From Bacteroidetes bacterium CG12_big_fil_rev_8_21_14_0_65_60_17 (lineage in GTDB: Bacteria > Bacteroidota > Rhodothermia > Rhodothermales > UBA10348), in NCBI GenBank assembly GCA_002787815.1, contig PCUY01000075.1, forward strand, positions 11,406 through 75,405: 64,000 bases of DNA, read 5' to 3'. Position 1 is the first letter of the stretch. The number at the start of each line of letters is the position of its first letter. Below the pieces are notes generated by a model that was not told the origin of the DNA, did no database searches, and saw only the letters and a program-made list of their open reading frames with translations. Position numbers and translations under genes: made by a program. This document shows, in pieces, positions 1 through 4,031 of the stretch.

Positions 1-465
1 GTGGAGTATCTGGACAGTCCCCTTATTGTGGTCCGGGTTGGACAACACCAGATTGTGTATTCGGAATTCAACCGGTGGGGCGGCAGTCTGGAGAGCGGGG
101 TCATGCGCGCACTCGAGAGCCACCTGGAAGCACTTGCCCCTCTGGAAGGCGTTGCCACCGCGCCGTGGGACCCGCGGGCAGGCCACGACTATCTGGTACA
201 GATCCATCTTCTGGGCATGGAGGGGCTGGTGCCGGAAGCCGGGGCCGGCGCGGAAGGTGCTTCGCGCCTACTGGCATCTTGGGAAATCATCAGTCCGATC
301 GATGGAGCCGTTCTTGTTCGTGGAAGAACCAACCACACCACAAGCGGCTGGACGGCCGGAGACTACAACGACCTGGTAGGCCGGTTCGATGCCGGGCTGT
401 GGGAGCTGTCTCGCGATCTGGTGGCGGCGCTTGCAGCCGAGCGGGCATTGCTTCAGCAGGAATGA
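1..465 (+). CDS. pqiC: PqiC-family / ABC-type transport auxiliary lipoprotein, 5'-partial
   Basis: YLDSPLIVVR...EFNRWGGSL resembles the PqiC motif YLDRPQIV...RWAEPL; C-terminal helix YNDLVGRFDAGLWELSRDL; ORF runs off the window edge. Confidence 0.7.
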   Translation: MEYLDSPLIVVRVGQHQIVYSEFNRWGGSLESGVMRALESHLEALAPLEGVATAPWDPRAGHDYLVQIHLLGMEGLVPEAGAGAEGASRLLASWEIISPIDGAVLVRGRTNHTTSGWTAGDYNDLVGRFDAGLWELSRDLVAALAAERALLQQE

Positions 466-577
466 GTATTCTGCTTACCCGAAAAGAAGTCGCGTGACTT
501 CCTGGCCGGGAGCACCGATCGCATATCCTGTTCCGTGTACCCACTCACATTACGGGCAGGCTTGCCAGCGACGCATC

Positions 578-2419
578 ATGAACACCTCTACGACACGTAA
601 CTCACCCATTCACTTCCCTCCCGTCCTGCGCGCTGTACTCATGATGGGCTTAACGATCGCGATGACGGCCCAACTGGTGTCGGCACAGTCGCCTGCCCCG
701 GTAGATCTGGGGGCAGCTGCCAATTTCGGCGTTCTGGGCGGCTCGACGGTAACCAGTACAGGGGCCACAGCCATTTCGGGTGACCTGGGACTGAGTCCAG
801 GGACGGCCATTGACGGGTTTCCCCCGGCCACGGTGACCGGGACCATTCATATCAACACACCGGAAGCTGTCAACGGGCAGGCCGATCTGACGACGGCCTA
901 CAACGATGCGGCCGGCCGCTCGACGAATCCCATAACGGTGGCAGGCAATATCGGCGGCCAGACCCTGCCTCCCGGCCTCTACAAATCACAGACGTCTCTC
1001 GATGTGTCTTCCGGGGATCTGACCCTCGATGCCCAGGGAGACGAGAATGCGGTCTGGATTTTCCAGGTGGGATCCACGCTCACCACAACCTCCGGTCGGC
1101 AGGTGATCCTGACGGGCGGAGCACGGGCCTCAAACGTGTTCTGGCAGGTCGGCACATCGGCCACGATTGGCACGACATCGGCATTCGTCGGGTCCATTCT
1201 CGCCGATCAGTCCATTACTCTGGAAACCGGAGCGACGCTCAACGGCCGCGCGCTCGCGCGCATTGGCGCGGCCTCGCTCGACGGTAACAGTGTCACCGTC
1301 CCGGGAAATGCGCCCCCCCCGCCGGCTGAGGAGGTGACGTTGACGCTTCCGGTTACCGGCACGGAGCCGCATGGGCCCATAGCGCTCCCGGTAATGACGA
1401 GCGACATCGCGGACAAAGGCGTGCGCTCGTATGAGTTCAATGTGGGCTTTGACCCGGGAATCATCACGCTCGACGGCGTGAATACCGTTGGAACACTTTC
1501 GGAGGACGCCGTGGTCACGATAGATGCGACGTTTGGCAATATCACTGTCGCCGGAGTCAGAGCCACCGACTTCGCTGGCAGCGGCGTACTCATTTACCTT
1601 ACCGGTACGTCGGGTAGTTCAGGCGAAACCGATCTGCTCTTTACCGAGGTGACCTTCAATGAGGGAGCACCCGTCGGTATTGGCGTTGACGGACATATCA
1701 GGGTGTCCACGGCCCAACCTGTCGATCCGGTGACGTTGACGCTGCCCGTAACAGGCGCAGAGCCCCGTGTCGGGATTGCTCTCCCGGTGCTTACGGGAGA
1801 CATTGCCAACAAGGGCGTACTCGCGTATGACTTCACAGTTGGCTATGATACGGACGTCATCACGCTCGACAGCGTGAATACGGTCGGTACGCTTTCCGAG
1901 GATGCCACGGTCACGGTCGACACGACGGGTGGACGAATTCATGTGGTTGGATTCAGGAACACCCACTTCTCTGGAAGCGGTGTACTGGTCTACCTGACGG
2001 GCACGGCGAGTGATGCAGGAACGACGGATCTTACGTTCACAAGTCTTACGCTGAACAATGGCACGCCCGAGGGCATTGGCGTTGACGGAAATATCCAGAT
2101 CACCGTTGGTGTCGCCAACGAGGATGAAGCGGCGCTTCCTTCCGCGCTCGTGCTGCGGGGCAACTACCCCAATCCGTTTCGCTCCTCGACCCGCATTTCT
2201 TTCGACCTGTCCCAGGCAGCTGAGGTGCAGGTAGAGGTCTTCGACATGCTCGGTCGCCAGGTGATGGTGCTGCCATCCACACCGATTCCGGCCGGAACTG
2301 ACCAGGGACGCCGCCTGGATGCGTCTGCGCTGTCGACAGGTACGTATCTGTACCGGGTCATCGCGATTTCATCCACCGGTACGCAGGTGACGTCCGGTCA
2401 GATCTCACTCGTCAAATAG
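578..2419 (+). CDS. Secreted ice-binding protein: DUF3494 domain + two cohesin domains + T9SS C-terminal sorting domain
   Basis: ATG 578 with signal peptide ending VSAQ; DUF3494 motifs LGAAANFGVLGGSTVT, AYNDAAGR, LPPGLY, LTLDAQGD, WIFQVGSTLTT, NVFWQVGTSATIG; two 132-aa repeats with a cohesin pattern (LPV...YEFNVGFDP...GSGVLIYL); CTD GNYPNPF...VFDMLGRQV...GTYLYRV. Confidence 0.9.
   Translation: MNTSTTRNSPIHFPPVLRAVLMMGLTIAMTAQLVSAQSPAPVDLGAAANFGVLGGSTVTSTGATAISGDLGLSPGTAIDGFPPATVTGTIHINTPEAVNGQADLTTAYNDAAGRSTNPITVAGNIGGQTLPPGLYKSQTSLDVSSGDLTLDAQGDENAVWIFQVGSTLTTTSGRQVILTGGARASNVFWQVGTSATIGTTSAFVGSILADQSITLETGATLNGRALARIGAASLDGNSVTVPGNAPPPPAEEVTLTLPVTGTEPHGPIALPVMTSDIADKGVRSYEFNVGFDPGIITLDGVNTVGTLSEDAVVTIDATFGNITVAGVRATDFAGSGVLIYLTGTSGSSGETDLLFTEVTFNEGAPVGIGVDGHIRVSTAQPVDPVTLTLPVTGAEPRVGIALPVLTGDIANKGVLAYDFTVGYDTDVITLDSVNTVGTLSEDATVTVDTTGGRIHVVGFRNTHFSGSGVLVYLTGTASDAGTTDLTFTSLTLNNGTPEGIGVDGNIQITVGVANEDEAALPSALVLRGNYPNPFRSSTRISFDLSQAAEVQVEVFDMLGRQVMVLPSTPIPAGTDQGRRLDASALSTGTYLYRVIAISSTGTQVTSGQISLVK
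1334..2110 (+). repeat. Internal tandem duplication encoding two cohesin-like domains (offset 396 nt)
   Basis: gtgacgttgacgct begins both copies (1334, 1730); shared peptides VTLTLPVTG.EP, ITLD.VNTVGTLSEDA.VT.D.T, GSGVL.YLTGT, GIGVDG.I. Confidence 0.85.
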
Positions 2420-2427
2420 GCATCCAT

Positions 2428-2574
2428 ATGCTCGAATTCATCGTAATCGTCCTCGTCGTCCTGTGGCTTCTGGGTATTGTCACCTCGTCCACCATGGGCG
2501 GGCTCATACATATCCTGCTCGTCGTCGCTGTCATCGTCGTGCTGCTTCGATTCATCCAGGGCAGACGTACTTAA
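2428..2574 (+). CDS. lmo0937-family (DUF5670) small membrane protein, 48 aa, absent from ORF track
   Basis: Manual translation MLEFIVIVLVVLWLLGIVTSSTMGGLIHILLVVAVIVVLLRFIQGRRT; carries the family motif LWLLG...GGLIHILLV.A. Confidence 0.9.
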   Translation: MLEFIVIVLVVLWLLGIVTSSTMGGLIHILLVVAVIVVLLRFIQGRRT

Positions 2575-2597
2575 TGACTATTGAACGGGCACTTAAC

Positions 2598-2819
2598 ATG
2601 AAAGAAACAAAGATTGCTGCCGTCGTTCTGATCGTAGCCGGTATCCTGGGGCTTGTGTACGGAAGTTTTTCGTATACGAAAGAAACCCACGAAGGAAAGC
2701 TGGGACCGATAGAGCTCTCGGTCAAGGAGAAGGAATCGGTCAATGTTCCGGTCTGGGTTGGCGTGGGGGCCATTGTTGCCGGCGGCGCACTCCTTCTGAT
2801 CGGGGGCGGTAAGCGGTAG
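2598..2819 (+). CDS. Small two-TM membrane protein (DUF3185-like)
   Basis: MKETKIAAVVLIVAGILGLVYGSFSYTKETHEGKLGPIELSVKEKESVNVPVWVGVGAIVAGGALLL; alternative start ATG 2574 overlaps the upstream TAA. Confidence 0.75.
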   Translation: MKETKIAAVVLIVAGILGLVYGSFSYTKETHEGKLGPIELSVKEKESVNVPVWVGVGAIVAGGALLLIGGGKR

Positions 2820-2903
2820 CGCACGCCAGTTGTGGGCTTTCTATTTTTCAGTGTGGCGAGTGACACTTTGAGCGGCCACTGTAGACACTGAAGATGGAAT
2901 CCG

Positions 2904-4031
2904 ATGATCCGTTTCAATCGCAATGAGCTCGCCGGTGCGTTCGGTGACATGGGCACCGATGTGCCGCTCATTGTCGGTATGGTGCTTGCGGCTGGTCTGG
3001 ACGGTGCGAGTGTGCTCATCATGTTCGGTGCGCTGCAGGTGGTATCGGGCCTCATCTATCGCATGCCCATGCCGGTACAGCCGCTCAAGGCCATGGCGGC
3101 GCTCGTGATTGCCCAGCAGGCGACCGCCGGCATGCTCTACGGCGCGGGGCTCGCCATAGGGATCGTCATGCTGCTGCTGGCCATTACGGGAGGACTCGAC
3201 CTGCTCGCACGCTGGATTCCGAGGAGCGTGGTGCGCGGTATCCAACTCGGGCTCGGCCTGCAACTCGGCCTTGTTGCCCTTCGACAATTCATCCCAGCCG
3301 ATGGCCTGCCCGGCTATGTGCTTGCGGCCGGCGCGTTCGTCGTGACCATCCTACTGCTTGGCAATCGCCGGTTTCCTGCCGCACTGCCCGTTGTGGCGCT
3401 TGGGCTTGTGTATGCTGTTCTGTTCAATATGGATGCGTCGCTCGGCGATCATTTTGGCCTCCACCTGCCGGTCGTGCACGTGCCCTCATGGACCGACATC
3501 ATGGCAGGTTTCGTAGTGCTCGCGCTTCCCCAAATTCCGCTGTCGCTTGGCAACTCCGTGCTTGCCACGCATCAACTCTCCGAGGATCTGTTTCCGGGGC
3601 GTGGTGTGTCGGTGCGCCGGATCGGGATTACCTACGGTATCATGAACCTTATCAATCCGTGGTTTGGTGGCATTCCGACCTGTCACGGATCGGGCGGCAT
3701 GGCAGGCCACTACACATTTGGAGGGCGCACGGGTGGATCGATTGTTCTCTACGGCGCTGTCTTTCTTGTTACCGGGCTGTTTTTTGGCAGCGGGTTCGAT
3801 CTGGCGGCCGAGGCCTTTCCACTTCCCATGCTGGGCGTCATCCTGTTTTTTGAGGCACTCGCCCTCATGTGGCTCATCCGGGATGTAGCGCCCTTGCGTG
3901 CGGAGTTTCCGGTGACACTGCTAGTTGGTATCATCTCCGTTGGACTGCCATACGGATACGTGATCGGGCTTCTCGTGGGCACGGTGCTTGTCTACCTGGG
4001 CCGCCGCATCCAATTGGTCCAAGGGCCGTGA
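2904..4031 (+). CDS. Putative molybdate/sulfate transporter (MOT1 family)
   Basis: ELAGAFGDMGT and PMPVQPLKAMAA motifs, plus second-repeat PTCHGSGGMAGHY.FGGRTGG; polytopic membrane protein. Confidence 0.85.
   Translation: MIRFNRNELAGAFGDMGTDVPLIVGMVLAAGLDGASVLIMFGALQVVSGLIYRMPMPVQPLKAMAALVIAQQATAGMLYGAGLAIGIVMLLLAITGGLDLLARWIPRSVVRGIQLGLGLQLGLVALRQFIPADGLPGYVLAAGAFVVTILLLGNRRFPAALPVVALGLVYAVLFNMDASLGDHFGLHLPVVHVPSWTDIMAGFVVLALPQIPLSLGNSVLATHQLSEDLFPGRGVSVRRIGITYGIMNLINPWFGGIPTCHGSGGMAGHYTFGGRTGGSIVLYGAVFLVTGLFFGSGFDLAAEAFPLPMLGVILFFEALALMWLIRDVAPLRAEFPVTLLVGIISVGLPYGYVIGLLVGTVLVYLGRRIQLVQGP

Follow-up and report, generated by a model that had tools for sequence, protein, structure and literature searches.

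A DUF3494 head joined to tandem cohesin modules and a type IX sorting tail in a Rhodothermales bacterium: a candidate cell-surface ice-binding protein

The gene and its product

The window analysed here is a stretch of 64,000 nucleotides from Bacteroidetes bacterium CG12_big_fil_rev_8_21_14_0_65_60_17, a member of the Rhodothermales (assembly GCA_002787815.1, contig PCUY01000075.1, positions 11,406 to 75,405 of the forward strand). Close to its start lies a single intact open reading frame (ORF) of 613 codons, which runs from an ATG at position 578 to a stop codon at 2417-2419 and encodes a predicted secreted protein with an N-terminal DUF3494 domain, two cohesin modules and a C-terminal sorting domain (CTD) of the type IX secretion system (T9SS; Table 1). 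An earlier note on this DNA, drawn up from the letters alone, had listed a signal peptide, a DUF3494 domain, a proline linker, two cohesin-like repeats of 132 residues and a T9SS CTD, and every item of this list was recovered. The two profile hidden Markov models that it had named for confirmation, PF11999 for the head and PF00963 for the repeats, were run on the protein and both families scored above their curated cut-offs. We have high confidence in the parts and topology of the protein as described here.

An identical protein was recovered from four samples that are separate from each other, namely three ENA assemblies and one JGI metagenome, which rules out a chimeric contig or other artefact of assembly as the source of the fusion. 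The NCBI version of the protein has 676 residues and begins at an upstream ATG at position 389, overlapping the end of the preceding ABC_trans_aux gene. This start is disfavoured, given that both the alignment of orthologues, whose N-termini share the motif M-x-T-S-T-T, and the signal peptide support initiation at position 578. By sequence, the signal peptide carries R7 and R18 in its n-region and a hydrophobic core at residues 19-34, followed by the predicted cut after A36. In the AlphaFold2 (AF2) model, residues 1-34 have a predicted local distance difference test score (pLDDT) below 50, with a helix at residues 15-24. The model as a whole, at a mean pLDDT of 87.4, contains four folded domains separated by linkers of low confidence.

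The C-terminal tail is recognised by two profiles, namely Por_Secre_tail (PF18962; residues 530-596, 35.7 bits, cut-off 27) and the NCBIfam model for T9SS type-A tails (TIGR04183; 36.5 bits, cut-off 23). About 50 proteins of the genome carry such a CTD, and the secretion machinery, which was checked by way of PorU, is represented by a full-length PorU sortase (C9:13766-17191; NF033707, 956.9 bits, cut-off 420). Type-A tails are removed by PorU and the new C-terminus is joined to lipopolysaccharide; by analogy with this established T9SS biology, covalent anchoring to the cell is expected for the window protein as well. Certain T9SS cargo proteins end up free in the medium, and the CTD might likewise serve export only, leaving a soluble recrystallisation inhibitor around the cells to which the cohesins add size or self-association. 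Most characterised DUF3494 proteins are indeed secreted and soluble (PMC7783341). We nevertheless consider shedding very improbable, as a type-A tail together with PorU typically gives surface attachment and the stalk of one to eleven modules described below is hard to square with a soluble protein.

Table 1. Parts of the gene at positions 578-2419 of the window and the basis of each assignment.
Feature	Residues	Positions	Strand	Basis
Whole gene: DUF3494-cohesin-cohesin-CTD, predicted to be secreted	1-613	578..2419	+	ORF and translation, domain matches; stop codon counted in
Signal peptide, predicted cleavage VSA/QS	1-36	578..685	+	Sequence reading, AF2 pLDDT, orthologue starts
DUF3494 / IBP-1 beta-solenoid head, EfcIBP-like	38-242	689..1303	+	PF11999, phmmer, Foldseek
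Pro-rich linker GNAPPPPA	243-250	1304..1327	+	Sequence; pLDDT dip to 67
Cohesin module 1	251-382	1328..1723	+	PF00963, 27.6 bits; predicted nine-strand beta-sandwich
Cohesin module 2, adjacent to the anchor	383-514	1724..2119	+	PF00963, 35.1 bits; tree, alignment
Flexible linker, probable PorU cleavage/attachment region	515-528	2120..2161	+	pLDDT <50 at residues 511-524; site inferred from T9SS biology
Type-A T9SS C-terminal sorting domain (NYPNPF, GTYLYRV, final K)	529-613	2162..2416	+	PF18962, TIGR04183

The DUF3494 head and its probable ligand

The head matches the Pfam family Ice_binding (PF11999) at residues 52-240 with an E-value of 3.9e-63 and 213.3 bits, as compared with a curated cut-off of 28.7 bits, and the match spans the full length of the profile (positions 1-208). 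Its closest solved relative is EfcIBP (PDB 6EIO; phmmer E 4e-70), a protein that derives from bacteria in the consortium of the Antarctic ciliate Euplotes focardii. The two sequences are 58.5% identical over 205 aligned positions, and the head contains no long insertion relative to EfcIBP and a gap of one single residue. In the AF2 model, pLDDT exceeds 90 across the domain, a long helix occupies residues 95-113, and Foldseek superimposes the predicted head on 6EIO with a template-modelling (TM) score of 0.91 and a root-mean-square deviation of 0.8 Å at 58% identity. The predicted structure is that of a discontinuous triangular beta-solenoid braced by a single long alpha-helix, and this IBP-1 arrangement of solenoid and flanking helix would be common to both proteins. 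They differ in their surroundings: the solved EfcIBP chain is a single domain of about 220-240 residues, whereas in the window protein the head is followed by two cohesins and a T9SS anchor.

For EfcIBP, the measured thermal hysteresis is 0.53 °C at 50 µM, and the protein shields cells from freezing damage (PMC10992025). Of its 50 threonine and serine positions, 40 remain threonine or serine in the aligned sequence of the head, and 46 are threonine, serine, alanine or glycine. The head also retains the T-x-T and T-x-D/E repeats that were described in EfcIBP (PMC7277481). The next-best solved matches, namely AnpIBP, the Cryosericum IBPs, FfIBP and ColAFP (34-44% identity in Foldseek), were all called ice-binding or antifreeze proteins by their depositors. 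Because EfcIBP and these further matches are ice-binding or antifreeze proteins, the head is likely to be an ice-binding domain of the EfcIBP type, its function being bracketed among relatives that bind ice, and we regard ice as its probable ligand.

The source genome contains one DUF3494 gene. The domain was found in 11 of 251 Rhodothermales genomes, spread over 6 of 102 genera, and within the genus it is limited to the source genome and one genus-mate (G002), whose copy of the head is 88% identical. A further copy, in a Rhodothermales genome of a different family (G167), is 85% identical, whereas the remaining Rhodothermales copies reach only 36-61%. Copies from Acidobacteriota, Myxococcota, Planctomycetota, Eisenbacteria, Chloroflexota, Methanobacteriota, Thermoplasmata and Bathyarchaeia, by comparison, share 66-75% of their residues with the head. 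Since it is nearer to these phyla than to most Rhodothermales copies, a known signature of DUF3494 transfer, the head was acquired horizontally. The DUF3494 domains of three archaeal loci (L015, L018 and L059, from Methanobacteriota, Thermoplasmata and Bathyarchaeia) are 68-75% identical to the head, a likeness between archaeal and bacterial copies that implies recent transfer between domains of life. Judged by isolate names, from which alone habitats were read, many of the closest relatives of the head come from a permafrost mire, glacier-fed streams, Antarctic sites and boreal lakes, and others from soil and wastewater.

Several of these and other observations speak against ice, and the same architecture might serve a general adhesin of a mesophile, the head of which binds another ordered surface such as a polysaccharide, a mineral or another cell. 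Proteins with DUF3494 domains are found all over the world, in tropical regions and hot springs among other places; other substrates have been considered possible for them, and the term 'ice-binding and substrate-binding' has been applied (PMC7783341; PMC12337378). The crude optimum growth temperature of the source organism, estimated from the IVYWREL fraction of its proteome, is ~36-38 °C, with no signature of a psychrophile, and close relatives of the head are also present in wastewater, soil and lake genomes besides polar ones. Set against this, the head is nearest to the tested EfcIBP, the more distant solved DUF3494 proteins are without exception described as ice-binding or antifreeze, the threonine and serine positions of EfcIBP are mostly kept, and many of the closest relatives carry the names of cold sites. 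In addition, our literature search found no tested DUF3494 protein reported to bind a non-ice ligand instead of ice. A non-ice ligand is therefore rather unlikely in our view. The composition of the genome, with the above estimate and a tRNA GC of 0.61, excludes a thermophilic host and is uninformative either way on cold tolerance. It had been anticipated that an ice-binding protein would be unexpected in a lineage best known for thermophiles and halophiles; this stands in so far as the domain is rare in the order and of horizontal origin, but not with regard to temperature, given that the proteome composition looks mesophilic rather than thermophilic.

Cohesin modules as stalk or as docking sites

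The two repeats comprise exactly 132 residues apiece and are 61% identical as protein and 68% as DNA. Pfam reports two stretches of the Cohesin family (PF00963) with an E-value of 8e-13 for the whole protein, and each repeat alone exceeds the curated cut-off of 24.1 bits when the genome is scanned in six frames (scores in Table 1), as the earlier note had supposed. Both are predicted to fold as a nine-strand beta-sandwich (jelly-roll) and, at 12-19% sequence identity to solved cohesins, match cohesins whose structures were solved in complex with dockerins, namely CaCohA2 (6KGC-F) and ScaC Coh3 (4UYP/Q), with TM scores of 0.71-0.75 in Foldseek.

The number of modules varies between orthologues. 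One cohesin is present in P0004 (the protein of G167), P0008 and P0009, two in the window protein, and three in the G002 orthologue, the assembly of which breaks inside the repeats and leaves the gene on two contigs. Eleven modules follow each other in P0138, a protein of 1822 residues (L119:4813-10281), in which they separate the DUF3494 head from the T9SS tail with an exact period of 132 residues and a pairwise identity of 45-83%. (P0007, of 527 residues, is a truncated database copy of P0138.) Sixteen modules from these orthologues can be aligned without gaps over 132 columns, and the linkers measure roughly 8-12 residues. Given that the copy number is 1, 2, 3 or 11, that the period is exact and that the linkers are short, the modules can be read as a stalk of variable length.

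How such a stalk grew can be read from a tree of 58 related modules, in which the modules attached to DUF3494 form a single clade with a support of 97/97 and modules 1 and 2 of the window protein pair with modules 2 and 3 of the G002 protein. In the alignment, window module 2 shares its C-terminal end (...TVGVAN) with the last module of P0138, and the corresponding end of the module in P0004 is similar. Because the modules constitute one clade, and because the module next to the anchor is orthologous in G002 and closely alike in P0138 and P0004, it follows that the last module stayed in place and the stalk grew by tandem duplication upstream of it.

A search with a profile of these modules retrieved 3231 proteins among 1.84 billion representatives. 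The best matches are large surface proteins with up to ten cohesins, which alternate with FN3, CarboxypepD_reg, He_PIG, CHRD or DUF4397 domains. Among 71 cohesin representatives of up to about 900 residues, clustered at 50% identity, 39 carry a Por_Secre_tail, 9 a CHU_C domain, 8 a dockerin and 2 a DUF3494 domain; the combination of cohesin spacers with DUF3494 was found in only about six clusters at 90% identity. Cohesins of this type are thus a common component in the make-up of T9SS surface proteins, while fusion of such a cohesin to an ice-binding head is rare. Our literature search found no publication mentioning DUF3494 together with cohesin.

Cohesins are best known as the docking sites of cellulosomes, and an alternative proposal had been a scaffoldin that docks dockerin-bearing enzymes at ice or other surfaces. 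Similar to the window protein, cellulosomal scaffoldins such as CipA of C. thermocellum consist of tandem cohesin-fold modules and are anchored to the cell, and scaffoldin dyads (3L8Q, 4FL4) were among the Foldseek matches. Several cohesins also occur on one polypeptide with a predicted anchor (two here, eleven in P0138). The genome of the window organism, unlike theirs, lacks a set of dockerin-bearing enzymes, and its protein would be anchored through the T9SS, in contrast to the usual Gram-positive routes. Linkers of scaffoldins are long and flexible, whereas those of the window protein are short and fixed. In the source genome, which is 95.5% complete, the sole dockerin-like module scores 20 bits (curated cut-off 22.9 bits) and belongs to a giant T9SS surface protein, not to an enzyme; a profile search and a motif scan of all ORFs of the genome found no second dockerin and no dockerin-bearing enzyme. 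The classical scaffoldin is thus rejected. The absence of any dockerin from the genome had been named as a finding that would speak against docking, and here the outcome is divided, since one dockerin-like module does exist, yet it lies below the cut-off and on no enzyme.

A looser form of docking deserves separate treatment, in which the cohesins are working receptors that capture this lone dockerin-like module and thereby link the ice head to a larger, non-cellulosomal assembly. The module amounts to ~60 residues around ADFNNSGTVNAFDAALIF and is found in the giant protein encoded on contig C90, the first gene of a three-gene cluster (C90:3-6842; loci L001-L006). This gene is cut by the end of the contig, and its product terminates with a dockerin-like and a cohesin-like module followed by a CTD. 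The cluster is conserved within the family and kept in three further genomes (L117, G001 contig C19; L115, G016 contig C69; L116, G022 contig C113), and in relatives the giant protein has 2000-2500 residues and in every case two T9SS proteins with cohesins come after it. The latter two carry their cohesins at the N-terminus, together with He_PIG/cadherin and CHRD domains or, in one genus, in a bare cohesin-CTD form. Of the giant protein of G001 (2425 residues), Pfam detects the tail only. The cluster gives the appearance of a non-cellulosomal surface system of cohesins and dockerins in the Rhodothermales, as yet undescribed.

This system also bears on the cohesins of the window protein, and tells against a purely passive part for them. 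A dockerin-like module accompanies cohesin proteins in the conserved cluster, dockerins occur in the 8 of 71 related cohesin proteins mentioned above, both window repeats score above the cut-off of the cohesin profile, and the folds predicted for them resemble those of cohesins solved together with dockerins. In genus g2, moreover, the second gene of the cluster encodes a bare cohesin-cohesin-CTD protein that is 35-37% identical to residues 252-613 of the window protein, and the nearest outgroups of the window cohesins include the second cohesin of such proteins and a LamG-cohesin-dockerin protein. The window cohesins may well descend from a family that binds a dockerin, and they may still bind something. 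Docking of the lone module is nonetheless unlikely. The genomes G000, G002, G003 and G167 contain one sub-threshold dockerin-like module each; across genomes these modules score 18-21 bits and their first calcium loop is degenerate. One dockerin per genome is too few when each molecule carries 2-11 cohesins and the cluster has cohesins of its own, the dockerin is on no enzyme of the genome, the window gene is unlinked to the cluster and has a neighbourhood that varies by lineage, and the exact period and short linkers fit a rod better than a flexible scaffoldin. In its strongest version, docking would mean that a few lineages grafted an acquired ice head onto a cohesin receptor of the family's dockerin-cohesin surface system, creating an 'ice-anchored scaffoldin' with 1-11 docking sites. 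If true, attachment to ice would be physically coupled to a surface assembly in which a giant T9SS fibre protein is plugged, through its single dockerin, into cohesins of several other T9SS proteins; we regard this as quite unlikely.

With so few dockerins for so many cohesins, we read the modules as spacers rather than enzyme receptors, and a role as passive spacers of adjustable length is, in our judgement, fairly probable. We further propose that these spacers were borrowed from local 'cohesin-cohesin-CTD' surface proteins. On balance, the gene product is probably a cell-surface ice-binding protein in which a head of the EfcIBP type is carried on a short cohesin stalk. The domain order of head, cohesins and CTD leaves the head distal, as in an ice adhesin of the SfIBP_1 / MpIBP design, and fixation to the cell would follow from the sorting tail. 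An ice adhesin with cohesins as its stalk had been the other proposal of the earlier note, and it fits a head that resembles EfcIBP at 58% identity, lies farthest from the T9SS anchor and is followed in its orthologues by one to eleven modules at fixed spacing.

According to this proposal of a stalked ice-binding protein, the signal peptide would direct the protein across the inner membrane and the type-A CTD would allow its passage through the T9SS, after which PorU would be expected to remove the CTD and to link the new C-terminus to lipopolysaccharide of the outer membrane. The two cohesin beta-sandwiches, as rigid units of 132 residues connected through a short linker, would then form a stalk of roughly 8-10 nm (an estimate from typical cohesin dimensions and not from the model) that holds the N-terminal solenoid beyond the surface glycan layer. 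There, the flat faces of the head, rich in threonine and serine, could adsorb to ice, so that the cell sticks to the ice or nearby crystals are kept small during freezing (recrystallisation inhibition). Tandem duplication of the modules would tune the length of the stalk.

Related designs and surroundings of the gene

Tethered DUF3494 proteins are thought to hold or manage ice at the cell surface, and few architectures have been described. One precedent is SfIBP_1 of Shewanella frigidimarina (PDB 6BG8), also retrieved by Foldseek, in which a DUF3494 domain is joined to tandem beta-sandwich domains and which has been proposed to be an ice adhesin (Vance et al., 2018, as summarised in PMC7277481). 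The head of the window protein is 28% identical to that of SfIBP_1, and its spacers have the cohesin fold, whereas those of SfIBP_1 are Ig-like. The anchor of SfIBP_1 reportedly lies at the opposite, N-terminal end. A second precedent is provided by T9SS-exported DUF3494 proteins of Bacteroidota and relatives (DUF3494-CTD, Big_5-DUF3494), which are common among the matches and also occur in other Rhodothermales (L098, L108). These proteins likewise contain a signal peptide, a DUF3494 domain and a Por_Secre_tail; they have no spacer, or Big_5 or other repeats, where the window protein has cohesins. Both the principle of a tethered DUF3494 head with tandem beta-sandwiches and the export of DUF3494 proteins through the T9SS are therefore already known. 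The novelty lies in a stalk built of cohesin modules, in the series of 1 to 11 copies, and in the link to a local family of cohesin and dockerin-like genes.

A ready-made DUF3494 head has moved horizontally, even between bacteria and archaea, and has been grafted onto a surface-display cassette specific to the host. If our reading is correct, cohesins serve T9SS surface proteins as spacers of adjustable length. The orthologues with 1 to 11 modules constitute a natural series in which the length of the stalk can be compared with adhesion to ice.

The locus itself is a variable region, which within the genus is common to the window genome and G002 only. It is flanked by a gene for an Mla-type ABC auxiliary lipoprotein (window positions 1-465) and a gene for a MOT1-type molybdate transporter (2904-4031). 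Two genus members without the ice-binding gene (G001 and G003) also lack the flanking MOT1 transporter and ABC_trans_aux genes, so the whole stretch, and not the ice-binding gene alone, is variable. Around P0004, P0008 and P0009, the neighbouring genes bear no relation to those beside the window gene, which argues against an obligatory partner gene.

Genes for a CheB/CheR-PAS-HisKA_3 hybrid kinase and a response regulator of the LuxR type are located upstream of both the window gene (L008:1-2187, about 3.2-5.4 kb upstream of window position 1) and its eleven-cohesin orthologue (L119:967-4718). In L119 this pair directly adjoins the gene, while in the window genome an Mla-type operon lies between them, and the association was not seen for P0004, P0008 and P0009. 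Regulation of the gene by the kinase and regulator is possible. A scan of positions 300-3000 for promoters and terminators found nothing with a consensus of the E. coli type, which may not suit this phylum. When the upstream regions of six orthologues were aligned, conservation was weak and restricted to the three closest sequences.

Directly after the window gene, positions 2428-2574 encode a DUF5670 membrane protein of 48 residues (E 8e-15), and positions 2574-2819 a protein of 81 residues that by eye resembles a two-helix membrane protein. In L119, the eleven-cohesin orthologue is followed by ORFs of 48 and 73 residues, which are similar in size and position to this pair.

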